Origin: an uncultured virus (IMG/VR IMGVR_UViG_3300020201_000017)
Lineage: Duplodnaviria; Heunggongvirae; Uroviricota; Caudoviricetes
Direction: 5' to 3' (one strand)
IMG/VR virus record: IMGVR_UViG_3300020201_000017
DNA length: 64,000 nt
Part shown: in pieces, positions 3,464 through 47,939 of the stretch
How the letters are laid out: every line of letters begins with the position of its first letter
How positions within the stretch are numbered: the first letter of the stretch is position 1
Notes under the pieces: model-generated
What the model saw: only the letters and a program-made list of their open reading frames with translations
Told to the model about the DNA's origin: nothing
Databases searched by the model: none
Position numbers and translations under genes: made by a program

Positions 3464-3736
3464 ATGACAGAGACTCAGATATTAAAGTTTAAAAACATAT
3501 TATTGTTAGTCGCACGCAGGCCAGCGATGTTTTTTGGACCCACTGAAGAAAACTATGCTAACTGTATGAGGTGTTACATATACGGATATGGTGACGCCAT
3601 TGATTTCAATATTGCCGTAAGTTTAGAAGAATACTTGAATTCTACATTAATTCATGAAATCAATGATTTTAAAAATCTGATGGATAAGCTGATTGAATGG
3701 TGCGATTATCATAAAATCAAAGAAATCATAGAATAA
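3464..3736 (+). CDS. Hypothetical protein ending in KIKEIIE
   Basis: 90-aa ORF; RRPAMFFG motif. Confidence 0.65.
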   Translation: MTETQILKFKNILLLVARRPAMFFGPTEENYANCMRCYIYGYGDAIDFNIAVSLEEYLNSTLIHEINDFKNLMDKLIEWCDYHKIKEIIE

Positions 3737-3841
3737 ATCAAAATTAATTTTTACATAATAAAAACTAAATACTTTATTAACATATAATATATGGATATAA
3801 AAATACTTTGATAATATCATTAATAAATTATTTTCAAAAAT

Positions 3842-3875
3842 AAAACTCACAATTAATTTTGTGAGTTTTTTTTGT
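3842..3875 (+). terminator. Intrinsic terminator
   Basis: AAAACTCACAA-loop-TTGTGAGTTTTTTTT. Confidence 0.7.
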
Positions 3876-3919
3876 TTTTCATATGCAGATATTTATCGAG
3901 ATCTTGATTGCTTTTCTCA

Positions 3920-3973
3920 TTGACTAAATAAGCACACTGTGTCACTATAGCACAGTGCTCAAAAAGGAGGTGT
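3920..3973 (+). promoter_or_regulatory. Promoter overlapped by an inverted repeat, followed by a strong RBS
   Basis: TTGACT-N17-CACTAT; AGCACACTGTG/CACAGTGCT inverted repeat; AAGGAGGTG before ATG 3975. Confidence 0.5.
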
Positions 3974-3974
3974 T

Positions 3975-4208
3975 ATGGTTAAAATATCAGAAACAACAGT
4001 GCGTGAACAACTTTTCGCACTTTTTGTAACTAAAGATCCGGTGGAAGCCAAAAAAGCAACTTATGATCAAAAACGAGATGAAATTTACCTTAATGGTAAA
4101 TATTATCCAGTTGATATGGAAGCCAAGGCTGTAATTGACCGCTTAAAACTAAATGGTTATAATGAAACTTGGATTAAAACATCAGTATTAAAGGTTGCTA
4201 AAAAATGA
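3975..4208 (+). CDS. Hypothetical protein
   Basis: 77-aa ORF with strong SD. Confidence 0.7.
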   Translation: MVKISETTVREQLFALFVTKDPVEAKKATYDQKRDEIYLNGKYYPVDMEAKAVIDRLKLNGYNETWIKTSVLKVAKK

Positions 4209-4786
4209 ATAAAGAAGATATGCATGAGCAATTAAGCAAGTTAGAATTATATCATTATGTCATATGTGCCATGTGGTCGTTCGCTGCAATAGTTTTTTTA
4301 TGCATTAATATTTTAAATATAAGTAAAGATAGATGGTTAGCGGTTTTAACTTTAGTAGCAGTTCTGCTCGCGTATATGAAGTTTAAATCAGCAAGCAGTT
4401 TTGGTGCGACAAAAAAACTGTATAGAATTGACGAACCAAATACTCAAATAAAAAAACAGTTTTGTTTTACTGATAAAAATAATCGTTTAATACTTAAAAA
4501 TGAAGCTTTTTATATTCAGAAAATAACAGATGAAAATAATAACCTATTAAAAGATTCCGAAATAAAAGAGCTGAATGATTCTGACTTTATATCTAATTTA
4601 TTAATGTGGTCAGACAAAGTTCGAGTGGTAAACAAAGACTACGCAGTAAATATTAAGATAGGTCACAAAGTTGTTGGAGTAATATCTCCAACTGAAGTTA
4701 AATTTTATGATAAAGTTTTAGCAAAAGATACTGACGCTCTGCAAGTTTGGAAAGCTTTAACAATTTCAACAAGAATGGAAAATTAA
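4205..4786 (+). CDS. Membrane protein (two N-terminal TM helices)
   Basis: Hydrophobic segments YVICAMWSFAAIVFLCINIL and WLAVLTLVAVLLAY. Confidence 0.65.
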   Translation: MNKEDMHEQLSKLELYHYVICAMWSFAAIVFLCINILNISKDRWLAVLTLVAVLLAYMKFKSASSFGATKKLYRIDEPNTQIKKQFCFTDKNNRLILKNEAFYIQKITDENNNLLKDSEIKELNDSDFISNLLMWSDKVRVVNKDYAVNIKIGHKVVGVISPTEVKFYDKVLAKDTDALQVWKALTISTRMEN

Positions 4787-4788
4787 TT

Positions 4789-5046
4789 ATGGATATTTTA
4801 AATCAAGATTTCGTTACAAAAGTACGTACAACTTTAGAAGAATTAAGTAAATCAGGTCCTGTAACTAAAAAAACGCTAGCTTCAGCCTTAAATCTTAAAG
4901 ATGGCTGGGATGATGTTTTTACTCTTATGTTAAAGAATGGTTTACTACCTGGCTTTATTACTCGTAAAGGTAAATTTGGCGGGTTTGTTAAAACAGGATT
5001 TGTTAAATTTGGTCAAGAAGAAATTGGTGAAACAGAAAATGTCTAA
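4789..5046 (+). CDS. Possible winged-helix DNA-binding protein
   Basis: PVTKKTLASALNL helix and TRKGKFGGF wing-like motif; start moved to ATG 4789. Confidence 0.4.
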   Translation: MDILNQDFVTKVRTTLEELSKSGPVTKKTLASALNLKDGWDDVFTLMLKNGLLPGFITRKGKFGGFVKTGFVKFGQEEIGETENV

Positions 5047-8284: not shown

Positions 8285-8368
8285 AAAAGAAATGAAAATG
8301 AAAGATTTTAAGTTGAAAGTACAAGAAGAGGATAAGGCGTATCATGGCAAAATGGCTGGAGAAAAACT

Positions 8369-9274
8369 ATGAATGACAAACAACTAGAACAAGTAGCGCG
8401 TGAATTGTGCCTGCTACGCGGAGAGGATCCAGACGAGCGGGTACAGTTCGGAGACGCGCTGGATACTTTGATCCTTGGTCCTCGGTGGCAATCTGTTAGG
8501 GTAGCCGTGCGAGAGGCCTGGCTTATGGCTGAGGCCATGAAGAACATCGCGTTCTTGGAACGCTCTGAAAAAATTGAGGCCGAGTTGGGGGTCCAATACC
8601 GTGGACCTAACGCTCCTAAGCTGCAGACACTTGCGCAAGCTGCTGCAACGGCTAAGGCCAAAACAGATTACAAGACACTTTTGGCCGCCGCAGAAGCAGC
8701 CCTTGAGCACCAAGGGCGCGGCAGTGCGAGCACCATGCAATTTCAGGGGGCCCGAGCATATATTGAGTCTGATGCCTCAATCATTTTGGATGAATCTGCG
8801 GCCCAAGTAGCTGTAGCGGGGCTCTCAGAATTAGAGTCAAAACCAGCGTCATACGACTGCGAATGGGACGACGACGACGCTCTTTATCTGCTAAGTCGCG
8901 ATACCGATTCCGACGGCTCAATAATTTTGGACGAATCTGCGTTCAAGCCATATAGGCTGGCAAATGCAAATCATCGAATTGTATGTCTGCAGAACGACAT
9001 CTTGAGCTTGAATAGACAGATAGCTCGACTGCAGTCCGGCAATATCATTGAGTCCGATCTATTGACCGCCGTCGATGATTTATGGCTGGTGCAGTCACGG
9101 ATTCGTGAGCTTGAGGCGTATCGTACAGAATCCAGGCGATTGGCTGGCGGGCTCACAGAAAAAGATACGGATGCTGCGGCACTGAATCGAATCCAGAATC
9201 TTCGTCGCATGGCCGATGCTGATGAAGGAATAGAGGCTGCGCACATTGCGGAGAATTTAGGAGGCAAACCATGA
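8369..9274 (+). CDS. Mosaic hypothetical protein (island)
   Basis: 301 aa; internal SIILDESA duplication; RQIARLQSGNIIESDLLTAVD module. Confidence 0.7.
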   Translation: MNDKQLEQVARELCLLRGEDPDERVQFGDALDTLILGPRWQSVRVAVREAWLMAEAMKNIAFLERSEKIEAELGVQYRGPNAPKLQTLAQAAATAKAKTDYKTLLAAAEAALEHQGRGSASTMQFQGARAYIESDASIILDESAAQVAVAGLSELESKPASYDCEWDDDDALYLLSRDTDSDGSIILDESAFKPYRLANANHRIVCLQNDILSLNRQIARLQSGNIIESDLLTAVDDLWLVQSRIRELEAYRTESRRLAGGLTEKDTDAAALNRIQNLRRMADADEGIEAAHIAENLGGKP

Positions 9275-9495
9275 CACCTAGACGCACTGAAATTAGGGCA
9301 GCAGAGCGGGCGGCGGAAGTGGCAGTCGAAGAGGCGCGCAATACATGGGAGGCGGCGAATGAGTCTGAACGGGCTGCGCGCGAAGTGTTGACTTCGGCAC
9401 GGGCTGCGCTCAAAGTAGCGAGGGACGAGTGTATTCGGTTGGCATCGGCCGACTACTGTGCAGAGATCGGATCGAGCGGAGAGTACGAACAATGA
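9271..9495 (+). CDS. Ala/Arg-rich helical protein (island)
   Basis: AGGAGG RBS, ATGA overlap. Confidence 0.65.
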   Translation: MTPRRTEIRAAERAAEVAVEEARNTWEAANESERAAREVLTSARAALKVARDECIRLASADYCAEIGSSGEYEQ

Positions 9496-9692
9496 CGAAC
9501 AAGAAACTGCAAAAAGAGGCGCTGGAGGCACAGAGGCGCCAGGCATCGGCCTGGCGGGCAGTGCAGGCCGACAAGTGGGCAACGGAGCAGTACGCGTATG
9601 CGGCGAAAATACGAACAGGCGTGCTCCGGCGTGAGTGGGCAATAGCGAAACGGTTGGCGAAGACTGCGGCCGCTAAGACGGTGACGAAATGA
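9492..9692 (+). CDS. Ala/Arg-rich helical protein (island)
   Basis: ATGA overlap start MTNKKLQKE. Confidence 0.6.
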   Translation: MTNKKLQKEALEAQRRQASAWRAVQADKWATEQYAYAAKIRTGVLRREWAIAKRLAKTAAAKTVTK

Positions 9693-9949
9693 ATGACGAC
9701 GAAATGACTGACGAACAATTGAAGGACGCCGAATCGAAGGCGCACGCAGCGCACGCCGCGTGGCAGACGGCTCACCACGCCGCTGCTGCAGCACTTTTGC
9801 TTACGTACGAGGCGTACGATGCGGCCTGCGCAACAGCAGTGCAGGCGCACATTGCACGGTGCCGCGCAGTGGATGCGTGCGAGGCGGTACAGAAAGCACA
9901 GGCGGCTGCAGCTACAGTTGCGCTGGATGTCACAAAGGCGTACCTGTGA
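9689..9949 (+). CDS. Ala-rich helical protein (island)
   Basis: ATGA overlap; repeated Ala-rich helices. Confidence 0.6.
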   Translation: MNDDEMTDEQLKDAESKAHAAHAAWQTAHHAAAAALLLTYEAYDAACATAVQAHIARCRAVDACEAVQKAQAAAATVALDVTKAYL

Positions 9950-10269
9950 CGGACGCAGAAGCCCGCTCTGCATGGGAGGCGATGTCAACAGCGCAGCGCG
10001 ACGCAATGGCTAGCGCCGCTCCAGATTTCGCGGGAGCGTGGCAGTCGGCGAGAGACGAGGACAACTGGATCCGGGGCAGGGACTGGGACTGGGAGCAGGT
10101 CGTTGCGCGCGTGACTTTGAGTGGGCGCGCGTTTGTTGAGCGTGCGTTTGTTGCGTCCGTATCGATGGATCGGACAGTCACTCAACTCGGGAAATTTAGA
10201 TCCATCGAACTCGCGCAGGCAGCGTGTGACGCAGCGCTTAGGGCAGATGAGTGGGCGCTCGAACCATGA
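9946..10269 (+). CDS. Hypothetical protein (island)
   Basis: GTGA overlap start; C-terminal LG-x-F-x-S-x-E-x-AQAACDAALRA. Confidence 0.6.
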   Translation: MTDAEARSAWEAMSTAQRDAMASAAPDFAGAWQSARDEDNWIRGRDWDWEQVVARVTLSGRAFVERAFVASVSMDRTVTQLGKFRSIELAQAACDAALRADEWALEP

Positions 10270-10496
10270 TGTGCGGCAGGCGGGAAGACGAAACGAGCAC
10301 TGCAACATGTTGGGCGACATCTGCGCAGGTCGCGGCGTACGCGCTCGACATAGCCCGCGCGGCGCGGCGCGCCGCCGAGCTTGACCGAGAAGACGACCGC
10401 AGACAGGCTGCGCGAGACGCGTACCGGCTAGCTGCGTTTGATGCGGATGACAGCAACTATCTAGATTGCCCTTCGGGCGGGAACGGAGAACCATGA
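10266..10496 (+). CDS. Hypothetical protein (island)
   Basis: ATGA overlap. Confidence 0.55.
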   Translation: MMCGRREDETSTATCWATSAQVAAYALDIARAARRAAELDREDDRRQAARDAYRLAAFDADDSNYLDCPSGGNGEP

Positions 10497-12785: not shown

Positions 12786-12880
12786 GAAAGAGTAGGGAAG
12801 CATTATTTCGGGCGCTGGTTGCAGCTGAGGCTTGGTTTGAAACGACCATTACTGCTAAAGAAACTATTTTGGGAGGCTAA
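12782..12880 (+). CDS. Small hypothetical protein (island)
   Basis: ATGA overlap, 32 aa. Confidence 0.4.
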   Translation: MRKSREALFRALVAAEAWFETTITAKETILGG

Positions 12881-12882
12881 AA

Positions 12883-14469: not shown

Positions 14470-14703
14470 ATGTTAATGTTATATTTTGAGATAATAGTCA
14501 TTTTTAATCTAATATTTTCAACATTATTTAGTATTAGATTATATTTTGAACGTCAACCTGGTTTTTTAGAGAAGCTTTTCCTAAATGATTATTTTTATTT
14601 TAAAGTTATTTTCCCGCCAATAATTTTAATTAATTTTATTATTTATCAGAAAGAACAAATAAATAATAAAAAACTAGATATGATTAAAGAGATTATAGAA
14701 TGA
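14470..14703 (+). CDS. Small membrane protein, paralog 1
   Basis: IFPP-x-x-L-x-x-FIIY-x-K; ends MIKEIIE. Confidence 0.6.
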   Translation: MLMLYFEIIVIFNLIFSTLFSIRLYFERQPGFLEKLFLNDYFYFKVIFPPIILINFIIYQKEQINNKKLDMIKEIIE

Positions 14704-14933
14704 CCAGGGATAAATTATTATTTATTTTAATATGGATAATCTACTGTTCTATTTTAGGAGTAACAATCTATATTAGGAGTAAATTCTCAAAACATTTAAT
14801 TAAAAGAGTCAGTTCATTACAATTTTGGTTCACACTTATTTTTCCTCCAAATCTTTTAAGGTTATTTATTATTTATAAAAAGCGCAAGGCAAAAAAGAAA
14901 AAACTAAAAATAATTAAAGGTATAATAACATGA
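14700..14933 (+). CDS. Small membrane protein, paralog 2
   Basis: IFPP-x-x-L-x-x-FIIY-x-K; ends IIKGIIT. Confidence 0.6.
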   Translation: MTRDKLLFILIWIIYCSILGVTIYIRSKFSKHLIKRVSSLQFWFTLIFPPNLLRLFIIYKKRKAKKKKLKIIKGIIT

Positions 14934-16815: not shown

Positions 16816-16911
16816 ATGGCATTTTTCCAGCTCATAAATGGGGATCATAATCAATTATCATCTTTAAAAGATCTGGTTAGTTTTTTAAAAATTAAAAATA
16901 TTATGGAGTAA
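16816..16911 (+). CDS. 31-aa ORF ending KIKNIME (not in the ORF track)
   Basis: Manual translation MAFFQLINGDHNQLSSLKDLVSFLKIKNIME. Confidence 0.35.
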   Translation: MAFFQLINGDHNQLSSLKDLVSFLKIKNIME

Positions 16912-17440: not shown

Positions 17441-17737
17441 ATGATAGAAAATTTAGAATTAATAGTTAATTACACACATAAAGAAAAATTTACTTTAAAA
17501 ACAAAAGCGATTATGTACTCAGACGAAATACTCCATACTCATGAATGGAACGTTATGGAAACAGATATTGATAACCCAAATCATTTATCAATAGTTAAAT
17601 GTAAACAGTGCTCGCTTACAGCAGTAAGAAAATCTGTAGATAAATATTCGCCTCCATCATTTCAGTACTTTGTACAAAATAATGGAGAAAATAAAGATAC
17701 CTGCAAGTTAAGGTATATTAAAAACATTATCCAGTAA
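17441..17737 (+). CDS. H-x-W/CxxC/C putative zinc-binding protein, copy 1
   Basis: THEW...KCKQC...TCKLRYIKNIIQ. Confidence 0.65.
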   Translation: MIENLELIVNYTHKEKFTLKTKAIMYSDEILHTHEWNVMETDIDNPNHLSIVKCKQCSLTAVRKSVDKYSPPSFQYFVQNNGENKDTCKLRYIKNIIQ

Positions 17738-17756: not shown

Positions 17757-18023
17757 CTGTATAGTTTCCACAATTATCAAAATAAAAACAGTCATGAGTT
17801 AAGTCATAAGTGGAAAATTATTGGCAATGGTGGATCTAACACACGAAGAGTTATGTTTAGATCAATTGAAACTAAAGATAATCGTCACTTTAAAATGAAG
17901 TGTCAAAAATGTAATTGTACCGGTAAAAAATTTGTTGGACAGTCATCTGAAATATTTTTAGATGATGAAAGTAATAATAATCTTACCTGTGAAGAAATCA
18001 TTATTAAAAATATAATACTTTGA
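17757..18023 (+). CDS. H-x-W/CxxC/C putative zinc-binding protein, copy 2 (not in the ORF track; start uncertain, CTG 17757 or ATG 17853)
   Basis: Manual translation SHKW...KCQKC...LTCEEIIIKNIIL. Confidence 0.55.
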   Translation: MYSFHNYQNKNSHELSHKWKIIGNGGSNTRRVMFRSIETKDNRHFKMKCQKCNCTGKKFVGQSSEIFLDDESNNNLTCEEIIIKNIIL

Positions 18024-18074: not shown

Positions 18075-18320
18075 ATGAAACATGCAATTGGCTTATCACA
18101 AGCTATTTGGGCCGTTAATGAAAATCACTCTTGGACAAAATTTATCTTCGAAAAAGAAGATGATGATGGGTACAGTTTCAATAAAATATATTTCAAATGC
18201 AAAGAGTGTGGGTTGGTAGCTCATTATAATGCTGGTGCTGATTGCCCATTTTTACACGATTATGAAACTGATTTTTTAATTAGTTGTGATGAAATAGTGA
18301 TTAAAAATATTATTGAATAA
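18075..18320 (+). CDS. H-x-W/CxxC/C putative zinc-binding protein, copy 3
   Basis: NHSW...KCKEC...SCDEIVIKNIIE. Confidence 0.65.
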   Translation: MKHAIGLSQAIWAVNENHSWTKFIFEKEDDDGYSFNKIYFKCKECGLVAHYNAGADCPFLHDYETDFLISCDEIVIKNIIE

Positions 18321-18732: not shown

Positions 18733-20067
18733 ATGTTAACTGACGTACCTAAAATTGATCAAGAGAAAATGGCTTTTATCTTCCGCCACGGAATTCGCTC
18801 AGGTGCGAATATCCTGGTTCTAGGACCATCGGGCAGCGGCAAGACAATTATTGCAAAGGCAATTGCTGAAGACCAAAAATGCCAGCTGGTTTATGTTAAC
18901 CTTGCAGTTCTTGAACGAACTGACTTTCAAGGTCTTCCCGTTCTATCTGTAGCCCAGGATACCGTAAACTACGCGACTCCCGAGTTCCTTCCATTTACTG
19001 ATAAGAGTCAGGACGAAGCTATTGCAAAGTTTATGCAAGTCAAAGAAGTACTTTCCAAGAGTAAGAGCAAGGATCGTAAAGAACTTCTCGAAATGGTTGA
19101 TAAAAGAATCGAAGAACTTAGAGTGCGAGATGATCGCGCTAAGTTAGGCGCTGTTCTTCCATATCTTACAGGAGGCGATTTTACTGCAATGATTAAGGAA
19201 ATGAAAGATACTACGGCCGACTTTGATCGTCCAATTGTTTTCCTTTTTGATGAAGCTGATAAAGCAGCTCATGAAGTTAATCAGACTCTTCTAGAGTTTC
19301 TCCAGTTTCGATCAATCAATGGTCGTAAACTAAATATTCAAGCATGTATTCTCACAGGCAATCTTCCCGATGAACATGCTCATACGTCCCAACTTTCTCA
19401 CGCAATTACGAAGCGATGCCAGACTTATCATTTGGAATTGGATTTCATGCAATGGCGTAAATGGGCAATGCAAAGTGGAATGCACGAGCAATTTATCGGA
19501 TTTCTTAATTCTAACCAAGATATGCTTTACCAAAAGGCGATTGATGATGATCCAACTTGTTATGCAATGCCTTCTCCACGTACTTGGGAACAGGCAAGTT
19601 CAGCTCTGAAAGATCTTGAACAGGATAAAGAATATCATGCAATGTCTAATTCTGACAAAGGTGATGCAATGAGAACTACAATTATTGCTGGTAACGTCGG
19701 TCACACCGCAGCTACTAAGTTTTCAGTTTGGTATAAGCACTATTGCAAGCTTGACCCAACAATTGATGCGCTCTGTGACAAAGGCAAGTTCCCAGATAAA
19801 CTATCACTTCAAGATCAATTCGTTGTCGCTTTATCAGCTTCAAGTAAGGTTTATGCCTCGCTGAAGCCAAATAACGAGAAAGAGATTAAAAAAATTGTCA
19901 AGAATGTTTACTCTTGGTTTGATACACTTGATATCGATGTTGCCCATGGTGTTATCCGTATCGGTTTTGGTCGTGACTTCGAACGTGTAAAACAATATAA
20001 ACTTGCGGAAATTGAAGAGTTTACTAATTGTTTTAAGAAAATTACAGCTCAGTTCGAAAGTAAATAA
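18733..20067 (+). CDS. MoxR-like AAA+ ATPase
   Basis: GPSGSGKT, D-x-x-GLP, FLFDE, TGN, PSPRTW. Confidence 0.88.
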   Translation: MLTDVPKIDQEKMAFIFRHGIRSGANILVLGPSGSGKTIIAKAIAEDQKCQLVYVNLAVLERTDFQGLPVLSVAQDTVNYATPEFLPFTDKSQDEAIAKFMQVKEVLSKSKSKDRKELLEMVDKRIEELRVRDDRAKLGAVLPYLTGGDFTAMIKEMKDTTADFDRPIVFLFDEADKAAHEVNQTLLEFLQFRSINGRKLNIQACILTGNLPDEHAHTSQLSHAITKRCQTYHLELDFMQWRKWAMQSGMHEQFIGFLNSNQDMLYQKAIDDDPTCYAMPSPRTWEQASSALKDLEQDKEYHAMSNSDKGDAMRTTIIAGNVGHTAATKFSVWYKHYCKLDPTIDALCDKGKFPDKLSLQDQFVVALSASSKVYASLKPNNEKEIKKIVKNVYSWFDTLDIDVAHGVIRIGFGRDFERVKQYKLAEIEEFTNCFKKITAQFESK

Positions 20068-20094: not shown

Positions 20095-21570
20095 ATGTCA
20101 AACCAAAGGTTAAATGATCCCAAAAATATTGCAGGCGATAAGCACAAAGCTCTTCAGGATAAACTCCTGTTGGCTCAAGCAAAACTAGCTCGCAGTCCAG
20201 ATAAAGGTGGTATACCATTTGTTTATTCCTTTGCGGCTGTTAAAGTTCATGAACTAGATGATATGACTCTCCCAATTCTTGATGAAAAGGGCGAAAAGGT
20301 CAAGCAACTGAAAACTGCTGCCACTGATGGAAACAAATATAAATGGTCTCCAGATTTTCTTGAGAAACTAACTACGGATGAGACTGCTTTAGTGATGGCT
20401 CATGAAACATACCATATTGTTATGCAGCATTGTAATATCAATCGAGTACAGTCTCGTAACCGTATGCTTTGGAACCTAGCGATTGATTATATTGTTAATA
20501 ATTCAATTGAACATGATAAACGTTATGCCAATGTTATTTCAGCTTACATAGCTGATCATGCATACAGTCAAAATGATTGGGATAAAACGCCTCATCCTAT
20601 GTGGAATGGTAATTTTGGTCATCCAAAAATCATGAAAGATCTTCTTAAAGATATCGAGAAGATGGTTAAAGAATATGCTGGGAATGGTAATAAGCCTAAG
20701 AAGCCAGATCCAAATGAAGCTGAACCTCCACCAGTCATTTTTGTTGATTATTCACTCTGGGGCAAGTCTGCTGAGGAAATTTATAATATGCTTCAACAGA
20801 AAATGGACGAAGAGAAGGAGAAAAATGGTATCAGTGCTGTTGATGGCATGTCCGATCAGGAAATGAAAGAAATGATGGAGGCTTATGGTGTTGGTGAGAC
20901 CCTCGATGCGCACGAGGCAGCCGACGTTGATAGACATAAACTCTTGGAAGATATTCTTAACGCAATGGAGTCAACTAAAAAACTAGCAGGTTCTGTGCCA
21001 GGATCTTTAGAAGAATTTCTTAAAGAGTTAATGGAACCCAAGTTGCGTTGGCAGGATCTGGTGAAGCATGCTATTCAAAAAAAGCGTCAGGAAAAGGGAG
21101 CTTATAATGATTGGACAAGGTTTCGCCGGCGTCCTTTAAGTTTAAAAATGTGGAGACCTAAGAAGAAAGATGATACGATCACTTGGGTTTGCATGTTAGA
21201 TACTTCTGGTTCCATGACTAATGATGACATTGCATATGGCATTTCACAACTAAAGGTGCTTGACGGCAAGAGCAGGGGTTATGTTGTGCCTTGTGATACT
21301 GAATGTTACTGGGATAAGATGAAGGAAATTAGGAGTATGAATGATTTACCTAAAGTTAACGTAGTAGGTCGTGGAGGGACAGTCTTTAATAGATTCTTCT
21401 CTGAATGGAAAAAACGTATTCGAGATCCTGTTGATCTTATTATTGTAATTACCGATGGTTATTTTTCTGTAGATTTTCCAAAACCTACAACCGATGTAGT
21501 GTGGGTAATTACAAACGATCACGATCCTAAATTGCCATGGGGACGCACAGCTCCTCTTCGTAGTTTTTAA
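20095..21570 (+). CDS. DUF2201-type metallopeptidase plus vWA domain protein
   Basis: TAATDG, HETYH (HExxH), WN-x-A-x-D; MIDAS DTSGSM, GRGGT, TDG. Confidence 0.9.
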   Translation: MSNQRLNDPKNIAGDKHKALQDKLLLAQAKLARSPDKGGIPFVYSFAAVKVHELDDMTLPILDEKGEKVKQLKTAATDGNKYKWSPDFLEKLTTDETALVMAHETYHIVMQHCNINRVQSRNRMLWNLAIDYIVNNSIEHDKRYANVISAYIADHAYSQNDWDKTPHPMWNGNFGHPKIMKDLLKDIEKMVKEYAGNGNKPKKPDPNEAEPPPVIFVDYSLWGKSAEEIYNMLQQKMDEEKEKNGISAVDGMSDQEMKEMMEAYGVGETLDAHEAADVDRHKLLEDILNAMESTKKLAGSVPGSLEEFLKELMEPKLRWQDLVKHAIQKKRQEKGAYNDWTRFRRRPLSLKMWRPKKKDDTITWVCMLDTSGSMTNDDIAYGISQLKVLDGKSRGYVVPCDTECYWDKMKEIRSMNDLPKVNVVGRGGTVFNRFFSEWKKRIRDPVDLIIVITDGYFSVDFPKPTTDVVWVITNDHDPKLPWGRTAPLRSF

Positions 21571-30618: not shown

Positions 30619-31332
30619 ATGAGAGACAAATATAAAAATATTGAATCAGCAATTATAGAAAAAACAAAAGATGGTGATGTTTATTATAATGTATTTTCAA
30701 GATTGGTTAAAGATAGGATTATATTTTTAAGTGATGAAATAGATGCTGAAGTTGCAACAACAATAGCTGCAACTATGTTTTATTTAGATCATCAAGATTG
30801 TAAGAAGGATATAACTTTATATATAAATACTCCTGGAGGAACAGTATCAGATGGCTTATTGACCATCTATGATACTATGCAATTTATAAAATCACCAGTT
30901 AAAACAATTTGTATTGGCGAGGCTTACTCTGCCGGGGCCGTTGTGCTAGCATCAGGATCGCCAGGAAAAAGACTGGCCTTTCCAAATGCAAAAGTAATGA
31001 TCCACGGTTTACAAATTGGAGGGTTAAGAGGGAGCGCTGTTGATATCGCTATTGAGGCTGCAGAAATTGCAAGACAAAACATAGCTTTAGCAGAAATTTT
31101 GGCTAGACATACAGGTAAACCTATAGAGCAAGTTCTTTCTGATATTAAAACAGATCGTTATTTGACGGCACAAGAAGCTTTAGATTATGGGTTAATAGAT
31201 GCTATTGTTAGCCCAAGCAAACAAATTCCAAAATTAATTTCAGAATCAATCATAGCTTTACCAATAGCTAAAGTTTTAAAAATTCCAACCAAAAAAGCCG
31301 CTATAAAACCTAAAAGAGTAAATAAAATATGA
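30619..31332 (+). CDS. clpP: ATP-dependent Clp protease proteolytic subunit
   Basis: FSRLVKDRIIFL, YINTPGG, catalytic S (AYSAG), H (MIHG), D (DRY). Confidence 0.95.
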   Translation: MRDKYKNIESAIIEKTKDGDVYYNVFSRLVKDRIIFLSDEIDAEVATTIAATMFYLDHQDCKKDITLYINTPGGTVSDGLLTIYDTMQFIKSPVKTICIGEAYSAGAVVLASGSPGKRLAFPNAKVMIHGLQIGGLRGSAVDIAIEAAEIARQNIALAEILARHTGKPIEQVLSDIKTDRYLTAQEALDYGLIDAIVSPSKQIPKLISESIIALPIAKVLKIPTKKAAIKPKRVNKI

Positions 31333-31694: not shown

Positions 31695-31978
31695 TTACCG
31701 TTTGTTATAATGCAATATTTTATTATTTTAAGGACGAGAGTGAATTTTCATATTGGAAAATGCAACAATCTGCCAATGCATTATATTTTGTAATTGATCC
31801 TATTGAATATGAAGTCACCGAGTCAGAATTATTAACAATTACTATTGTTGATTTGGAAGACCCTACAAAAAAATATAGTGAACGCCCAATTTGTATATTT
31901 TGCGATGAAGGCCCTGTCTTTAAAGATGAAAATAATTTTTGCCCTGTTTGCAGCTCCATAAGTATCTTTGCCCAATGA
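31691..31978 (+). CDS. Hypothetical protein with a C-terminal zinc ribbon
   Basis: CIFC...CPVC. Confidence 0.6.
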   Translation: MITVCYNAIFYYFKDESEFSYWKMQQSANALYFVIDPIEYEVTESELLTITIVDLEDPTKKYSERPICIFCDEGPVFKDENNFCPVCSSISIFAQ

Positions 31979-32502
31979 ATAATGTATTTAAAATTATAGA
32001 TATTGTAATAAAATATAAAGGAGCTGTTTACGGCGGTTTTGTTAGAGATATGTTGGCTAACAGGCCTTTTAACGATATTGATATTTGGTTTAAATGTTTA
32101 GAAGATAAATTAAAATTTGAAACACAATTACAAGCAGAGTATCAGTGTTCAATTACTTCTGTTGAATGGGAAAATGATAAATATTTCAGTCCAGCAGATC
32201 ATTCAAAAATAATTATTTTAGATGAGAAATTCGGATTTACTCTAGATGTTTTAGTTATAGATACAGATTCTTTTTTCACAAAACATAAGCCTGATGTCAA
32301 TGTTAACAGATTATATATTTCAAAAGATGGTATTAAAACTTATTGTACAAGTTACTCAGCATTTGATATCATAAAGAGTATTAAAAATAATCATATCACA
32401 CCAGAAATAAATTGTAAATCTATTAAAAAGAGAGTTGGTAAGTTACTAGATAAAGGTTGGGAGATGAACCCTGAATTACTAATTAAAGAAATTATTGAAT
32501 AA
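31975..32502 (+). CDS. Nucleotidyltransferase (CCA/poly(A) polymerase head-like)
   Basis: YGGFVRDML...FNDIDIW; D-x-x-VN-x-L; ends LIKEIIE. Confidence 0.75.
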   Translation: MNNVFKIIDIVIKYKGAVYGGFVRDMLANRPFNDIDIWFKCLEDKLKFETQLQAEYQCSITSVEWENDKYFSPADHSKIIILDEKFGFTLDVLVIDTDSFFTKHKPDVNVNRLYISKDGIKTYCTSYSAFDIIKSIKNNHITPEINCKSIKKRVGKLLDKGWEMNPELLIKEIIE

Positions 32503-35733: not shown

Positions 35734-36438
35734 ATGAGGTTGTTATTAGTAATTCAAAACTTGAGTCCGGTAGAAGATTTATCTTGTGATGAACTTGATA
35801 AGATCAAACCAATTGCAGAGAGTATAGGAACTTATTATAAGAATATATACCCTTATTTATTTGACACTAACCTGTCTGCTAAAGATAAATTAAAAGAGTC
35901 AATTAATAAATCAATGAAAAGCATGCCTACTTTAGGTGGTCAAAACTTAAACGTTGGTGAAATGCTTTCAGGTTTAGTTGAACAGTTTGGTGGTACAGCT
36001 GCAATGACTTCTCCAAAAACTAAAATTAAAATATGGAACTCACCAGCTATTTCTCATAGAAGTTTGAGTAAATTATTAAAAACACATTTACTTCCATTAC
36101 AAGAATCGCTTGGTGAAAGCTTCGTTTCATCTGAAAACTTATTATTACACTCGCCAAAAAAACAAGATTATACATTTATTAATAATGACATATTGAATAT
36201 TATTAATAGAATTTATTCTTTTTTATCTTTATTAAACAATCCTCCATTGTCTTTATTAAGCAGCCCTGATAATTTTTTAATTAAAGATCATATAATTATT
36301 TGCGATAGTTTTATAGCTAAATTAATTACAATGATTGTTTGTGAACAAAATTACGAAACGGTTAATCAGGACATTAAATGGAATAACATGTCGGTTAGAC
36401 TTGTGGAAAACCTTGATAAGGGGTATATATTTGAATAA
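35734..36438 (+). CDS. Hypothetical protein
   Basis: 234 aa. Confidence 0.65.
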   Translation: MRLLLVIQNLSPVEDLSCDELDKIKPIAESIGTYYKNIYPYLFDTNLSAKDKLKESINKSMKSMPTLGGQNLNVGEMLSGLVEQFGGTAAMTSPKTKIKIWNSPAISHRSLSKLLKTHLLPLQESLGESFVSSENLLLHSPKKQDYTFINNDILNIINRIYSFLSLLNNPPLSLLSSPDNFLIKDHIIICDSFIAKLITMIVCEQNYETVNQDIKWNNMSVRLVENLDKGYIFE

Positions 36439-37018
36439 CGAAAATACTGTTTCAGATTTTGAACTTGCAAAAGTTCATGAGTTAGTAAGTTCAGTTAATA
36501 ATAGTGTTGTGACTTCAAGTAGCAATGTGTTTAATACTTCTGCTCTAACCTGGCATCAACAAAACAATTGTTCAACATTTTTTCCAAAAACAACTTCAAC
36601 GTTTACAGAATTTGCTGATGAAATGTTTATAGAAAATAATTTTGAATCAAATAGTGAAATGTTAGATTTAAATAAATTAAAGTTTATTTCAATCATTAGT
36701 AAAGATTTTAAATCAATAAAACAAATGCATAATAATAATTATATATTTGAAAATTTTTATATTTATACTATTAAATATAAAATAAATGAAAAACAATATA
36801 TAAATAAAATATCTTCTCAATATGAACCTGATAGCAAACAAACGGATCTATTATATTTTTTCTTTTTACCTCAAGCAATTTTATTACCTGAAATAAAAAA
36901 ACAAGAATTTATTGATTTAATTCAAAAATATGATAATTTTTTAAAAATAAAGAAATTAATTTTCATAACAAAAATTAAAAGTGTAGAAGAAGATTTAATT
37001 GAAAAGATTATTGAATGA
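36431..37018 (+). CDS. Hypothetical protein ending LIEKIIE
   Basis: Probable TTG start at 36431. Confidence 0.55.
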   Translation: MNNENTVSDFELAKVHELVSSVNNSVVTSSSNVFNTSALTWHQQNNCSTFFPKTTSTFTEFADEMFIENNFESNSEMLDLNKLKFISIISKDFKSIKQMHNNNYIFENFYIYTIKYKINEKQYINKISSQYEPDSKQTDLLYFFFLPQAILLPEIKKQEFIDLIQKYDNFLKIKKLIFITKIKSVEEDLIEKIIE

Positions 37019-43218: not shown

Positions 43219-44544
43219 ATGGAATTTAAGGACTTATCACAAAAAGAAATTGACGATCAGGAAAATTTAACAAAAGAAAGATTTAAGAGATTAATTCCAA
43301 AATATGAGTGGGAATCACAACAAAGTGGTCGCCCAAAAGAGCATTTAGTTGATTTAATGAATTGGTCTAAAGAAACTTTCAAACATAATTTAAAACAAAA
43401 TAAAAATGTTAGCTGCTATATTCATAATAAAATTGTAATAGATGGTTCGTTTTTACAATTTTGCGACGAGCAAAGCATTACAGTTGAGGTTTTAATTAAA
43501 GAATCTGTTGCTTCCTGGAATAGTGATAATGATAATGAGCATTTTTTAGTGCAAGGTGTCTTTAAAATTAAAAAAGGCAATTTAGAATTTTTACATTGCG
43601 CTTTGTTTCATAAAGGCAATCAAAATGAGGATGAGATTGCATTTTTTATAGTCGCTGATAATAGTGTCTTTTATGACTACGTACAATTACGTAATCAGTA
43701 TGATAAATGGTTGGTTGAAAGAGATCGTGAGCACCTGCAAATTCAGGTAATTGGTGGTGAAGGTTTTTCATATTCTAGAAATTCAAGCTGGGATGATTTA
43801 TTCTTACCAGATGATTTAAAAAAATCAATTAAGGGTGCTGTTGACAGTTTTATTTCAGCCGAAAATATTTATAAACAATCAAATATTGCATGGAAACGTG
43901 GAATGTTATTTTATGGTGAGCCAGGCGTTGGTAAAAGCTCTGCTATTAGAACAATTATATCTAATTATGATTTCAAACCAGTAACAGTTCAGTCTGGTGC
44001 AGATACTAATGATTCCGTCCTTACAGAGGCGTTCGCTTATGCTCAAGAACAATCGCCAGGACTTCTTTACATTGAGGACCTAGATACTCTTTTGGGCAAC
44101 TATGTCAGCATTTCACATTTTCTTAATTTAATGGATGGCGTATCAGCAAATAATGGCATTTTGATTATTGCAACAGCAAATGATATTTCAATATTAAAAG
44201 AGTCTGTAACAAGTAGGCCTTCCAGATTTGATAGGAAATTTTATTTTCCAAGACCTAATCATGATATGACAAGAAAATATTTAGAAAAATGGTTTGGCAA
44301 ATCTTTAAATAAAAAAGATTACACTAATCTTGTTAATATATCTATCGAGAACAATCTGACATATGCATACTTAAAAGAGTTATATTTGACATCAGTATTT
44401 AATGCAATTGCAGAAGATAGAGAAAAACCAATTTTAAAAGATATTTTAAGTGCTATGGACCAAATATCTTCAGATAAACAAACAGCTGATAACAATTTCG
44501 ATAATAATGATGATAACAACGGATCAAGAACAATAGGAGTATAA
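43219..44544 (+). CDS. Classical AAA ATPase (BCS1-like subgroup)
   Basis: WKRGMLFYGEPGVGKS, IEDLD, LN-x-MDG, RPSRFDR. Confidence 0.88.
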   Translation: MEFKDLSQKEIDDQENLTKERFKRLIPKYEWESQQSGRPKEHLVDLMNWSKETFKHNLKQNKNVSCYIHNKIVIDGSFLQFCDEQSITVEVLIKESVASWNSDNDNEHFLVQGVFKIKKGNLEFLHCALFHKGNQNEDEIAFFIVADNSVFYDYVQLRNQYDKWLVERDREHLQIQVIGGEGFSYSRNSSWDDLFLPDDLKKSIKGAVDSFISAENIYKQSNIAWKRGMLFYGEPGVGKSSAIRTIISNYDFKPVTVQSGADTNDSVLTEAFAYAQEQSPGLLYIEDLDTLLGNYVSISHFLNLMDGVSANNGILIIATANDISILKESVTSRPSRFDRKFYFPRPNHDMTRKYLEKWFGKSLNKKDYTNLVNISIENNLTYAYLKELYLTSVFNAIAEDREKPILKDILSAMDQISSDKQTADNNFDNNDDNNGSRTIGV

Positions 44545-44547: not shown

Positions 44548-44934
44548 ATGAATTTTTCAAAACTACCAAAAAGTAAATATGCAAGTGGGTTTAGGCCGGT
44601 AGATTTATCTACATTTAGTAGCGTAGAGGTTACTGTTCGTAATGGAAGGACAGATGACGCTGTAAGATATTTTAAATCATTGGTTCAAAAAGAAAATGTT
44701 TTAGGGTTATATAAGGAGAAGCAGGCTTATGAGAAGCCTTCAGTTAAACTGAAACGCAAACGTAAAGAATCGAAAGAACGACGCTTGGCCCAAGAAAGTA
44801 AAGAAAAAATGATTAAAAGTGGTGAGTGGGATAAAAAACAAAAACAAAAACAAGAAAAGAAAATGCAACGTCAACAAAATTCTAGTGATTCTCCAGCAGA
44901 ACGAAGCGATGAAGATTTGTACTTAAATAAATGA
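44548..44934 (+). CDS. rpsU: 30S ribosomal protein bS21 with N- and C-terminal extensions
   Basis: VTVRN...DDAVRYFK...G...YEKPSVKLKRKRKE. Confidence 0.85.
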   Translation: MNFSKLPKSKYASGFRPVDLSTFSSVEVTVRNGRTDDAVRYFKSLVQKENVLGLYKEKQAYEKPSVKLKRKRKESKERRLAQESKEKMIKSGEWDKKQKQKQEKKMQRQQNSSDSPAERSDEDLYLNK

Positions 44935-45444: not shown

Positions 45445-45447
45445 AAT

Positions 45448-46059
45448 ATGACAGATAAAAAAGCATCAGATTACTTAATTTCAATTGAAGCAAAATTAGA
45501 TAAATTATTAGCTGAATCAAGTAATAATAAGTTGCAGTTAAATATTTTATTAAATAAATTAAATAAAATAACATCTAATATTACTGTTACGGATTTTGTA
45601 AAAGAAAAATTAACTGATGTTTCTGATTTTGTTTTCACGCCAGCATCAGATGATGATAAATCAGAACCTATTAAAAAAGTAATGCCTGGCTTAAAAAGCA
45701 ATGTGGAAATACAGGACGGAGTTTTAATACAACGTGGCGAAGAGTCTTTGAAAGAGAATTTAAATAGCCATATTTTATTAAAACCCGTACCTGTTACGCA
45801 AAAAATATTATATCCTGATTTTTCAGGCGTATTTAATGCAACCGTATCTATTTTTGATAGTAATAAAAATAAAATAAAAACGCTAAAGACTAACAATGGA
45901 AAATGGAATTCGGCATTAATGCCAGGTAAATATAATATTATAATTACAAAGACAGCTACACATATTAAGCCTGAAATTAAGTTTAATATTGATGTTGTAA
46001 TTCCTTCATCTGATAATGTTATAGAATTACCAACACAGCAGGATAATGGCGATCAATGA
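45448..46059 (+). CDS. Coiled coil plus C-terminal beta-sandwich (carboxypeptidase-regulatory-like) protein
   Basis: A-x-V-x-I-x-D...T-x-x-x-GKW...L-x-PG-x-Y-x-I. Confidence 0.55.
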   Translation: MTDKKASDYLISIEAKLDKLLAESSNNKLQLNILLNKLNKITSNITVTDFVKEKLTDVSDFVFTPASDDDKSEPIKKVMPGLKSNVEIQDGVLIQRGEESLKENLNSHILLKPVPVTQKILYPDFSGVFNATVSIFDSNKNKIKTLKTNNGKWNSALMPGKYNIIITKTATHIKPEIKFNIDVVIPSSDNVIELPTQQDNGDQ

Positions 46060-46128
46060 TGATCATATTTTTAAATAATGCATTAACTTTTTGCTTAAGC
46101 TTTATTAAAAGCAGAAAGAAAAATACAA

Positions 46129-46812
46129 ATGAAATTTAATGTTATTTGCGCAGATCCTCCTTATTCTTTCTCTGATAAATTATCTATGTCGGACGTTAAA
46201 CGCGGAGCAGATTCACAATATCAGCTAATATCAAATAAAGACATTAAAAATATTGATGTGAAAAGTATTGTAGCTGATGATGCCGTTTTAGCTCTTTGGG
46301 TGCCATCTTCTCTTTTAAAAGAAGGTATAGAGATTATGGAAAACTGGGGTTTTGTTCTTAAACAGTCTCATATATGGGTTAAAACAAAACAAGAACCGCT
46401 AAAAGAATTAATTAAAGATTTATTAAAAATAAAATCTTTTGATGATGTTAAAATTGCAATTAAAAACCTTATTTCCTTTGATTTTAATAATATTTTATAC
46501 TTTGGTATGGGACGTTTATTTCGTCAGACACATGAAATAGTTTTAATTGGAACCAGGGGCAAAATATATCAGCATTTAGCAAATAAATCTCAACGTTCTG
46601 TTCATTTTGCACCAATTGGTAAACATTCGAAGAAGCCTGAGTCCTTACAGGACATGCTTGATGTTATGTTTCCTGATATGAACCTGAAAAAAATAGAATT
46701 ATTTGCTAGGCGAAATAAGCCAGGTTATTTGTGTGTTGGAAATCAATGCCCAGGAGATTATTTTGATCGTGATATTAGAGACTGTATTAAAGAGCTGGAA
46801 AATACCCCATGA
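46129..46812 (+). CDS. MT-A70 family N6-adenine methyltransferase
   Basis: ADPPY, L-x-LW, WGF, WVK, HS-x-KP, IELFARR. Confidence 0.92.
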   Translation: MKFNVICADPPYSFSDKLSMSDVKRGADSQYQLISNKDIKNIDVKSIVADDAVLALWVPSSLLKEGIEIMENWGFVLKQSHIWVKTKQEPLKELIKDLLKIKSFDDVKIAIKNLISFDFNNILYFGMGRLFRQTHEIVLIGTRGKIYQHLANKSQRSVHFAPIGKHSKKPESLQDMLDVMFPDMNLKKIELFARRNKPGYLCVGNQCPGDYFDRDIRDCIKELENTP

Positions 46813-46830
46813 ATATTTTAACATATTAAC

Positions 46831-47415
46831 ATGGAAAAAGTAAAACAATATTCAGTAAATTGTGGTGGCTGTGGCTCAGAATATGCAAATTACCAAGTGC
46901 GTCCTGCTAAAATTGGCAATTTAGTCATGGATCTTTGTAAACAATGTCAGGGCTATACAGAAACTTACCATAATTATAAACAGGCTGCTGATTTATTATC
47001 TGAAATATCAAAAATTGCTGATGCTAGTGGCCCAAACATTGTTATTGAGCCTGTAGAGCCGTTAGTACAGAAAGCTGTTGATGTTTTAAAACGCATGGAC
47101 TCTAATTATTTTTCAGGTGTCAGCAAGATTGTTTTAGGACCCTCAAATCAATATGGCCACGTACAATCTGGTGCAGACAAAGATCCTACGGTAATTAATA
47201 TTAATTCCGGCAGGATAAAACAAGAAGCTAAAAATGATGTTAGGACAGCTATTTTAAATATAGCAATTGTTATTGCTCATGAGCGTGCACATGTAAAATC
47301 ATACAAAGAAGATCAAGGATTTGTTGGTGGAGAATCTCCTGCGCAAGCAGAAGAAACGAAGGTTAGTAATTGGATAAAGAATAATAAAGATAGAATTGAA
47401 GATTTGTTGAAATGA
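46831..47415 (+). CDS. Zinc-ribbon plus HExxH (zincin-like) protein
   Basis: CGGC/CKQC; IAHERAH followed by GE-x-x-A. Confidence 0.55.
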   Translation: MEKVKQYSVNCGGCGSEYANYQVRPAKIGNLVMDLCKQCQGYTETYHNYKQAADLLSEISKIADASGPNIVIEPVEPLVQKAVDVLKRMDSNYFSGVSKIVLGPSNQYGHVQSGADKDPTVININSGRIKQEAKNDVRTAILNIAIVIAHERAHVKSYKEDQGFVGGESPAQAEETKVSNWIKNNKDRIEDLLK

Positions 47416-47792
47416 CAAAGAAAAAGCCTACTTACTCTGGTGGACGCTCTGATAGCAACCATACTGAGTGGGCACGCAAAGTTAAGGTTAGGTCTGGGCA
47501 TGCATGCCAAATGTGCGGTGTAAGAGATGTGTATTTAGAAAGCCACCATTTAAACTCATATGATATACATATTGATGAGCGTTATGATATAAATAATGGT
47601 ATTACATTATGTAAACACCATCATGATTCATTTCATAGTGCTTATGGTAATGGTAACAATACCAAATTTCAATTTGCCGAATATCAGCAAATATATAGAT
47701 TAATGCAGAAAATTGCAATAAAACGTCGAGTTGAACCGTTCATATTCCATGTTAATATAGATGAAGAAGATATAGATTATATTAATGAATAA
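47412..47792 (+). CDS. HNH endonuclease
   Basis: CQMCG...ESHH...NGITLCKHHH-x-x-FH. Confidence 0.88.
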   Translation: MTKKKPTYSGGRSDSNHTEWARKVKVRSGHACQMCGVRDVYLESHHLNSYDIHIDERYDINNGITLCKHHHDSFHSAYGNGNNTKFQFAEYQQIYRLMQKIAIKRRVEPFIFHVNIDEEDIDYINE

Positions 47793-47816
47793 TAAATATA
47801 TAATACATTTAAAGAA

Positions 47817-47939
47817 GTGTACTGTGAAGCTACAAATCAAGTAAATAAAATTCATGTTTCATTTAAAAAATATTTAGAAGATCAGGTAGTCAATATAATT
47901 AGTGTTAATGATGTTATAATTAAAAGAATAATTGAATAA
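47817..47939 (+). CDS. Short ORF or gene remnant ending IIKRIIE (not in the ORF track)
   Basis: Manual translation from GTG: VYCEATNQ...VNDVIIKRIIE. Confidence 0.35.
   Translation: MYCEATNQVNKIHVSFKKYLEDQVVNIISVNDVIIKRIIE

Follow-up and report, generated by a model that had tools for sequence, protein, structure and literature searches.

MoxR-type AAA+ ATPases paired with a metallopeptidase-vWA protein are known from jumbo and N4-like phages (PHROG 1297 and PHROG 1314; gp24/gp25 of N4), where their proposed role lies in virion assembly and the processing of structural proteins; a library of tagged clients or adaptors is unmentioned in the part of that account used here (Iyer et al. 2021, PMC7824862). 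Two other MoxR-vWA machines, as described in the sections cited, need an exactly placed C-terminus, that of the substrate in the rubisco activase CbbQO (PMC4660213) and that of the vWA partner in NorQD (PMC13036017). The C-terminal motif required by CbbQO tolerates neither the loss of one or two residues nor the gain of one, its penultimate residue being critical and its last one free (PMC4660213). A phage-made adaptor is also known for ClpCP, namely SPO1 Gp53 (PMC6873191).

Here, we describe a C-terminal peptide tag on proteins encoded beside such a pair in a window of 64,000 nucleotides (the whole stretch of DNA analysed, part of a 72-kb contig). The source contig is a member of an uncultured clade of ~450-kb myophages (clade A), and a search of 50,697 phage records gave no close relative. 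An earlier note on this DNA had listed ten ORFs with ends resembling I-K-x-I-I-E, and all ten read as claimed, on the + strand and with the tail flush against the stop codon. They are given here with the candidate and rival readers of the tag.

3464..3736, + strand: 90-aa orphan without Pfam or PHROG match, ends KIKEIIE
14470..14703, + strand: 77-aa membrane protein predicted from hydropathy, ends MIKEIIE; same cluster as the next gene
14700..14933, + strand: 77-aa predicted membrane protein (hydropathy), paralog of the preceding gene by clustering, ends IIKGIIT
16816..16911, + strand: 31-aa ORF, possible gene remnant, ends KIKNIME
17441..17737, + strand: 98-aa Cys/His protein with a tagged homolog in G001, ends YIKNIIQ
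17853..18023, + strand: 56-aa CxxC protein with the full 13-residue tag L-T-C-E-E-I-I-I-K-N-I-I-L
18075..18320, + strand: 81-aa H..CxxC..C protein, ends I-S-C-D-E-I-V-I-K-N-I-I-E; final tagged gene ahead of MoxR
18733..20067, + strand: MoxR-type AAA+ ATPase, 444 aa, with a clade-A helical insertion (PHROG 1297, E 6e-49); candidate reader (motor)
20095..21570, + strand: HExxH metallopeptidase-vWA protein (DUF2201_N + DUF2201), 491 aa, with vWA fold matches and intact MIDAS; candidate reader (adaptor/protease)
30619..31332, + strand: ClpP, catalytic Ser and His conserved; rival reader
31975..32502, + strand: 175-aa nucleotidyltransferase resembling Gad2 (Gabija anti-defence 2; PHROG 1614, E 2e-8), ends LIKEIIE
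36431..37018, + strand: ~195-aa orphan, start uncertain, ends LIEKIIE
43219..44544, + strand: Bcs1/YjoB-fold AAA ATPase with a flexible I-G-V tail; rival reader
47817..47939, + strand: 40-aa frame from GTG, possible remnant, ends IIKRIIE

The ORFs at 16816 and 47817 may be remnants because the first encodes only 31 aa and the second frame lacks an ATG. The nucleotidyltransferase carries a precomputed PF26128 assignment and an Atlas score of 0.97, with Gad2 on 24% of its cluster. This tagged Gad2-like enzyme and the two tagged membrane proteins suit the term client better than adaptor.

Two further tagged ends lie beyond the window, at contig positions 69656 (IIKNIIK) and 71522 (IIRNIIK). Across the 72-kb contig the core motif I-[KRE]-x-I-[IM]-x is found at 12 of 121 protein termini and at 6 of 21,898 internal positions (0.033 expected at termini; Fisher p 8e-24), and per-protein shuffles (n = 2000) placed it at termini with a mean of 0.03 and a maximum of 1. 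At each offset of 1 to 14 residues from the C-terminus of the 121 proteins the count is 0, and among minus-strand stop-ended segments the motif occurs in 1 of 2949. The strict form I-K-x-I-[IM]-[EQ] matches only 7 of the 10 window ends. Since the core pattern was derived from the initial finding itself, an unbiased terminal-word search was added, in which "..I..II." ranks top (9/115, expected 0.07); no N-terminal word is enriched in G000. The enrichment at termini over internal positions and shuffles that the earlier note proposed to test for is thereby confirmed. Its caveat that two paralog groups lie behind five of the ten ends carries less weight than feared: the genes at 14470 and 14700 are paralogs, but the contig's ten profile-scored tagged bodies form 9 clusters. 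The trigger factor does end in AEIIE, which had been taken for a partial tag, but this is a conserved family ending found in tagged and untagged clades alike, and it was rejected as a tag for that reason.

Judged by codon usage, selection acts on the tag peptide, as had been suggested from the synonymous variation. Information is concentrated in codon positions 1 and 2, third positions vary, and conservation past the stop codon is nil. It is very doubtful that the motif instead arises at the DNA level, from a Shine-Dalgarno site serving the downstream gene, a recombination cassette or descent from a single paralog family, or that it signals as a nascent peptide at the stop codon. Such an origin would account for the over-representation of AAG as the codon of the tag Lys, seen in G001 and G002 and more common with a coupled next gene (57/97 vs 10/33; p 0.07 and 0.05), and for several tag positions at which codon use differs from background; a single cluster, moreover, makes up 118 of the 531 tagged bodies, and a release-factor-like gene sits in tag-rich stretches. 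Against it, 70 G002 genes ending in IKDIIE use 38 DNA spellings, the tag Lys in the source contig is AAA in 8 of 8 cases, tagged genes use all three stop codons, and 240 of the bodies are singletons.

In two near-complete relatives, tag A (13-residue consensus L-T-x-D-E-h-h-I-K-D-I-I-E) ends 125 of 803 proteins (G001) and 114 of 727 (G002), or about one gene in seven, whereas offsets 1 to 6 give 0 to 2. I occupies position -2 in 97% and E position -1 in 74%; the last residue is missing in four G001 proteins, and no strict tag extended by 1 to 3 residues was seen in G001-G003. In near-complete clade-A genomes the tag sits on small accessory proteins drawn from 49 to 72 body families. Tagged proteins have median sizes of 69 to 96 aa, and the 531 bodies form 282 clusters, one of them being the large H..CxxC..C family of 18075..18320 with its 118 tagged members across genomes. 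A CxxC or repeat scaffold is present in 103 of 125 tagged bodies in G001, and CxxC in 40/114 (G002), 46/127 (G021), 28/47 (G040) and 15/31 (G028). Predicted membrane segments are rarer in tagged proteins (2/125 vs 36/409 in G001; 0/205 vs 89/1207 in clade B). Small core proteins are hardly ever tagged (0/28 in the source contig, then 0/79, 0/82, 0/139, 2/135 and 0/131 per genome), and no core structural protein or core early enzyme carries the tag.

The sister clade, clade B, ends its proteins in a different tag, L-K-A-F-x (tag B, identified via F at -2, the final residue being variable), partly on bodies homologous to those with tag A. Clade-B genomes contain 127/769, 47/698 and 31/733 proteins with tag B and 0 to 1 with tag A; among HRxDGPA-repeat proteins, 19 of 21 copies in G003 have a tag-A variant and 9 of 9 in G021 have tag B. 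In a distant phage group we observe tag D, D-E-x-x-h-x-x-V-M-E-S, which aligns as tag A plus one residue and has S at -1 in 67%, unlike the variable ending of tag B. Six vWA loci hold 209 ORFs, 58 of which end in tag D (offsets 1 to 7, 0 to 3; 53 body clusters), some of these genes lying between MoxR and vWA, and G045 has 68 matches vs 6 in the control. The tag is thus a protein-level, genome-wide address on accessory proteins that is replaced clade by clade, which upholds the addressing signal proposed in the earlier note, and we infer that it docks as a short helix (S/T-x-x-E cap, then an h-x-x-h-h face).

The packaging or export tag also suggested there is disfavoured but keeps some probability; a few tagged proteins look membrane-bound. 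A signal for packing such proteins into the head or tail to be injected, as a C-terminal analogue of the T4 capsid targeting sequence, would suit their small size, their scarcity of predicted membrane segments and, in one case, a similarity to an anti-defence enzyme. Core structural proteins are untagged, however, two tagged proteins of the window do look membrane-bound, and the putative capsid proteins of clades A and B are 77% identical although their tags differ, whereas those of G045 and G047 are 33 to 34% identical to that of G001 (76 to 86% within the A/B/C family) although tags A and D are similar. We regard loading for injection as highly improbable.

The MoxR and vWA genes at 18733 and 20095, which adjoin the tag cluster of the window, are probably the reader of the tag. 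MoxR has 94 homologs, several named MoxR-like, and its Walker B, sensor and arginine residues (D173, E174, N210, R228, R283) are invariant in 87 sequences. In the vWA-peptidase (PF13203 + PF09967), H103, E104 and H107 of HExxH and D369, S371, S373 and D454 of the MIDAS (DxSxS..T..D) are invariant in 90 sequences, with T429 nearly so. Every one of the 8 records with a completeness of 90% or more has the vWA-peptidase, as do 22 of the 27 searched overall, three clade-B fragments being among those in which it was undetected. All near-complete tagged genomes have the pair, except that in G002 the contig stops inside the vWA gene and so does not show the MoxR ortholog. Only 5 of 127 core groups lie no more than four genes from a tagged gene in all genomes, MoxR among them (6/6; vWA 6/7); the release-factor-like gene equals it (5/5). 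Neither MoxR nor the vWA-peptidase was detected in the untagged outgroup, two fragments of one clade (G036 and G039, 35% and 45% complete) in which the flanking markers adjoin.

When tags A, B and D are placed on one vWA phylogeny, the tag-D vWA is sister to that of clade A (SH-aLRT 99 and 92 in two trees), with mean BLAST bits of 266 for A-D vs 187 for A-B, though an A+B grouping stays unrejected (p-AU 0.085). Tag type appears to go with the vWA tree and not with the capsid. Both the tag and the vWA might instead be tracking the host, which would count against the reader link. The pair also occurs with no tag detected: a strong terminal motif is found at only 17 of 72 vWA loci vs 8 at control offsets, and bases 1-30,000 of the pair-bearing coliphage N4 show no tag. 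In pair-bearing G053 (96% complete), G058 (100%) and G054, tags A, B and D are at control level, in a search with loose patterns that other tags would escape.

Reading by a host protease, chaperone or clamp, with tags varying between clades along with their hosts, would agree with the uniformity of tags inside each clade. It is improbable given that multi-copy tag A is confined to clade-A records in both sets examined (19 and 88 stretches) and that tag type goes with the phage vWA tree. Of the partners that the earlier note listed for a docking peptide, the first AAA ATPase and the vWA protein stay as candidates for the phage hub, whereas ClpP and the second AAA (43219) drop out as general readers. 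That the tag is their degron or docking tail, mimicking the AAA's own C-terminal tail, gains something from an apparently intact ClpP active site and from AAA tails that vary by clade (I at -2 and E at -1 each in 10/18 in clade A; F at -2 in 33/61 in clade B; acidic in the untagged clade). Yet the untagged fragments G036 and G039 have ClpP, the Bcs1-like AAA and trigger factor, and the complete tag-D genomes G045 and G047 lack ClpP, trigger factor and the FtsK-like gene and have no Bcs1-like ortholog, with matches at AAA-domain level only. Moreover, the T-I-G-V end of the window's AAA does not align in register with the tag, and in clade B many AAA tails extend beyond F. As general readers, ClpP and the second AAA are thus quite unlikely.

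We favour, at a probability of roughly 45%, a docking helix for the phage MoxR-vWA machine with the variable bodies serving as adaptors. The tag, fixed at the extreme end of small accessory proteins, would dock them through its short C-terminal helix onto the MoxR ATPase/vWA-metallopeptidase, and the variable front parts would be interchangeable adaptors bringing targets for remodelling or cleavage. Adaptors are preferred about two to one over the machine's own substrates. Were the tagged proteins substrates of the MoxR-vWA peptidase, matured (e.g., by being loaded with metal or freed from a complex) or degraded at set times, all evidence for this reader would count equally; known pairs, as far as the cited sections go, act on the bearer of a C-terminal motif (PMC4660213) or insert metal (PMC13036017), CxxC occurs in many tagged bodies, and one body is an enzyme. 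Substrates are nonetheless unlikely: CxxC is absent from over half of the G002, G021, G040 and G028 tagged bodies together, untagged core early enzymes would be odd for a general clock, and HRxDGPA and other repeat bodies resemble binders.

More tentatively, protein targeting in giant phages may be programmable, as a prokaryotic equivalent of F-box adaptor libraries. Each genome would supply as many as 125 rapidly evolving binders, whose plug, a C-terminal helix particular to the lineage, would fit a single MoxR-vWA-metallopeptidase machine for remodelling or cleaving defence proteins of the host; plug and socket would co-evolve and move between phage families as a unit. We found no address system of this kind in print. 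If true, about a seventh of the genes in these phages, nearly all orphans, would share one logic, and the widespread MoxR/vWA-peptidase pair, a vWA relative of which is found in 177 cultured-phage records, would gain a function. Tags A, B and D provide a built-in specificity contrast (A and D vs B). Should the bodies be adaptors, they would form a list of anti-defence binders and the machine would be a tag-directed bacterial protease, retargetable in principle.

The SspB tail and the ssrA tag are likewise short terminal peptides that bring proteins to a AAA+ Clp machine. Clp adaptors are single and serve the host protease, however, and the free end of ssrA is non-polar and Ala-rich, whereas tag A ends acidic (E 74%) and tag-D genomes have no ClpP. 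Poxvirus ankyrin-PRANC/F-box and SOCS-box adaptors combine a variable binder with a common C-terminal docking module and are expanded in the viral genome, much like the variable bodies and common end seen here (282 clusters, 531 proteins), but their hub is the eukaryotic ubiquitin ligases and they use one body family; a Pfam scan of 75 window and 149 G001 core proteins gave no Skp1/cullin hub. The tag also recalls the encapsulation peptide of microcompartments, of which no shell family was found among the same 224 proteins. The T4 capsid targeting sequence is a short common address on small variable phage proteins too, but it is N-terminal, cleaved and restricted to a handful of internal proteins, while the tag is C-terminal, on up to a seventh of genes, and does not track the capsid.

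The described phage MoxR/vWA pair has the same domains and adjacency as 18733/20095; unlike in the cited part of that description, the pair here lies amid accessory genes and tracks a C-terminal tag (PMC7824862). The tag resembles the CbbQO motif in being flush with the C-terminus (12 at offset 0 and 0 at 1-14; 114-125 vs 0-2), constrained at the penultimate residue and freer at the last one in tags A and B, tag D differing in this last point. CbbQO has a single dedicated enzyme client and a two-residue motif, with no peptidase domain named in the section cited (PMC4660213), whereas here a 13-residue tail is carried by 30-125 unrelated proteins per genome and is replaced clade-wide.

The C-terminal tag is a real and large phenomenon. 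An earlier note had listed ten ORFs carrying I-K-x-I-I-E or a close variant flush against the stop codon, and all ten ends are exactly as given there; two of these ORFs are doubtful as genes (one of 31 aa, one of 40 aa from a GTG), gene calls having been made with a simple in-house caller. The terminal enrichment is borne out as well: over the whole 71.7-kb contig, I-[KRE]-x-I-[IM]-x is found at 12 of 121 C-termini (expected, 0.033) versus 6 of 21,898 internal sites. The core motif is absent at offsets 1 to 14 from the C-terminus and occurs once among 2,949 in a minus-strand control, and an unbiased search of terminal three-letter words in the contig's proteins ranks the same pattern first. 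Since contigs from four other public runs share the DNA with few differences, the contig is not an assembly artefact.

Pfam matches on the contig comprise NAD ligase, two Thg1, a MoxR-like AAA, a DUF2201 vWA-peptidase, ClpP, an FtsK-like ATPase, topoisomerase I, IF3, deformylase, and trigger factor.

Features of the window
214-633, DUF4116-repeat protein, kin to a tagged repeat family of the related phage G002, itself without the tag
8300-13400, GC-rich island with orphan ORFs (GC of 0.52-0.59 over 8-12 kb, against ~0.30 elsewhere)
14930-16787, two Thg1-like genes, preceding the tag cluster
18733-20067, MoxR
20095-21570, vWA-peptidase
21664-22830, LAGLIDADG endonuclease, directly after the vWA gene
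30619-31332, ClpP
31975-32502, tagged nucleotidyltransferase like the Gabija anti-defence protein Gad2
43219-44544, Bcs1/YjoB-fold AAA (the second AAA)
44548-44934, ribosomal protein S21 (TIGR00030, E 1e-10), directly after the AAA gene
46831-47415, conserved H-E-x-x-H protein

The contig is syntenic, at ~40-45% identity, with G001 and G002, two uncultured phages of 435-459 kb, and with a fragment, G003. Baseplate, sheath-initiator, and tubulin genes occur in these relatives; no close cultured relative was found. Its DNA was recovered in microbial-mat metagenomes, where eight runs hold at least half of its words, three of the eight being possible sources, and no RNA runs holding it were among the matches listed. 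With regard to the host, genome contigs yielded no relatives in scans with the full tag pattern, the AAA, or a GC-island protein. The GC-rich island was likely acquired from a higher-GC phage or host; one scan of genomes returned no relatives.

The tag also occurs in these relatives; in its full form (tag A) it reads L-T-x-D-E-h-h-I-K-D-I-I-E. Its exact DNA pattern has 99 matches in G002, 42 in G001, 23 in G003, and 12 in the related G004, with none in controls. Profile searches assign it to 125 of 803 proteins in G001 and 114 of 727 in G002, whose bodies (the proteins minus the tail) form 49 and 72 clusters, respectively. Across 231 tagged proteins the logo reads L-T/S-C-D-E-h-I-I-K-D/N/E-I-I-E, position -2 being I in 97% and position -1 E in 74%, and, judging by the S/T-x-x-E start and the spacing of hydrophobic residues, the tail may form an amphipathic helix with a cap. 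Few tags lie in the structural region and almost none on small core proteins, and none of 157 core groups includes a protein ending in tag A or its clade B counterpart. The proposal that selection acts on the peptide holds: 70 IKDIIE genes are spelled in 38 ways, with zero information 3' of the stop codon. G001 and G002, but not this contig, show a weak Shine-Dalgarno overlay (AAG). Single giant-virus proteins at five loci (L275, L304, L320, L327, and L011), one per locus, have tag-A-like ends such as Y-I-R-D-I-I-E, probably by chance.

Tags are replaced across whole clades. A quick AAA tree groups the contig with G001-G003 and G005/6 as clade A (SH-aLRT 92, unstarred), with sister clade B (98) and outgroup C (100). 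Tag A does not exceed controls in clade B and C records (0-2 matches). In its place, three near-complete clade B genomes carry K/R-h-x-x-L-K-A-F-x (tag B) at the end of 127 of 769, 47 of 698, and 31 of 733 proteins. The same HRxDGPA-repeat body ends in T-D-E-E-W-I-I-F-Q-I-I-N in 19 of 21 copies in G003, and in S-Q-E-E-F-E-K-L-L-K-L-K-A-F-W or variants in 9 of 9 copies in the clade B genome G021. In the two clade C fragments (G036 and G039; 35% and 45% complete), no terminal word is enriched, despite 95 small orphans in G036. The patterns for tag B and for tag D, described below, were set post hoc, with offsets and reversed patterns as controls.

Gene content across these clades points to the MoxR-vWA pair. 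By tblastn and HMM, MoxR and the vWA-peptidase are missing from both clade C fragments, where their clade A flanking markers are adjacent. The vWA-peptidase is present in all eight near-complete A and B records and in 22 of 27 overall, being missing also from three B fragments. MoxR is one of 5 among 127 core groups that always have a tagged gene four or fewer genes away. The same is true of a release-factor-like gene (G021:425360-426439 and best hits), which lies in a tag-dense region in each of 5 genomes; the clade B version is full length, that of clade A a short RF-1 domain. Both G001 and G002 also encode a divergent second MoxR and vWA, and the "100% complete" 435-kb record of G002 stops within the vWA gene at its right end (L417), the MoxR partner being absent from the record. 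Two clade-A-private candidate readers, the window genes at 46831 and 53069, were rejected, both being present in the untagged clade. The former, the H-E-x-x-H protein, has a tag-like end in clade A (I-E-D-L-L-K or L-Q-D-L-L-K), and its Atlas look-alikes score below 0.9, two of them being from Myxococcota.

ClpP and the second AAA, which the earlier note had also named as possible readers, fare less well. Within the A/B/C family ClpP remains a live candidate, as the tail of the second AAA resembles the tags, with I-G-I-E in A and K-Y-F-K in B. However, ClpP, the Bcs1/YjoB-fold AAA, and trigger factor occur in both untagged clade C fragments, and FtsK in one, whereas ClpP and the Bcs1-like ortholog are absent from the complete tag-D genomes G045 and G047, as are trigger factor and the FtsK-like gene. 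In 16 of 18 clade A sequences the second AAA has a flexible I-G-[IFV] tail, resembling a ClpP-docking IGF loop; in clade B, which has two ClpP genes, one without the catalytic Ser, the protein ends in D-K-Y-F-K. The S21 gene is kept in clades A, B, and C.

Tag D emerged from the best 80 of 274 vWA relatives in an alignment scan (a single-protein locus scan gave no matches). It reads D-E-x-x-h-x-x-V-M-E-S, in the register of tag A plus one residue, and ends 58 of 209 ORFs in six vWA loci, with 68 matches in G045 versus 6 in the control. The putative capsid protein of G045/G047 shares 33-34% identity with that of G001, against 76-86% within the A/B/C family, while their vWA groups with that of clade A (support 99 in one tree, 92 in another); tag likeness thus tracks vWA rather than capsid. 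Monophyly of A and B vWA was not rejected (p-AU 0.085), and tag and vWA could both follow the host. Three unrelated 82-108-kb phages (L428, L438, and L447) carry distant vWA-peptidase genes flanked by other terminal motifs, L-L-x-x-E-[LI] and E-L-[ILF]-x-E-L-[CF]. ClpP and the Bcs1-like AAA are both missing from G056.

The pair looks necessary but not sufficient, because it is present in G053, G054, and G058 with tags A, B, and D not above control, no tag occurs in the first 30 kb of N4, and a strong terminal motif appears in just 17 of 72 vWA loci (8 at control offsets).

CbbQO, a MoxR-vWA activase, requires an exactly placed C-terminal motif whose penultimate residue is critical and last residue free, and the motif peptide is enough to stimulate its ATPase (PMC4660213); in another system a hydrophobic C-terminus docks in a MoxR ring (PMC13036017). 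The phage tags follow the same C-terminal grammar, so the tail probably plugs into the phage MoxR-vWA-peptidase, a candidate reader to which we give a probability of roughly 0.6. Complex prediction for MoxR, the vWA-peptidase, and a 32-residue tag alignment gave 0.24 against a mark of 0.32, with a single MoxR subunit and controls not folded. A separate vWA model built from 6 sequences was poor (pLDDT 61). Tagged bodies are more likely adaptors than substrates, being mostly zinc-ribbon-like or repeat scaffolds with fast turnover. Tethering of active cargo is possible too, since the ten tagged proteins include the Gad2-like enzyme and two membrane proteins. A search with the Gad2-like protein returned its self match alone, and PADLOC gave no hit on 8 tagged proteins.

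The phage MoxR/vWA gene pair has been described and proposed to act in virion assembly (PMC7824862). No description of such C-terminal tags turned up in searches of open-licence PMC and bioRxiv, which also covered the literal tag strings. In Bacillus phage G, seven paralogous repeat proteins (L382:9512-22790, gp538-gp563) that share a terminal helix are encoded just upstream of MoxR gp566; as a tag on unrelated bodies this cluster was rejected, being one paralog family. Phage G is cultured and possibly a tractable model. Among known systems, the tag invites comparison with F-box/PRANC, ssrA/SspB, the T4 CTS, and the encapsulation peptide.
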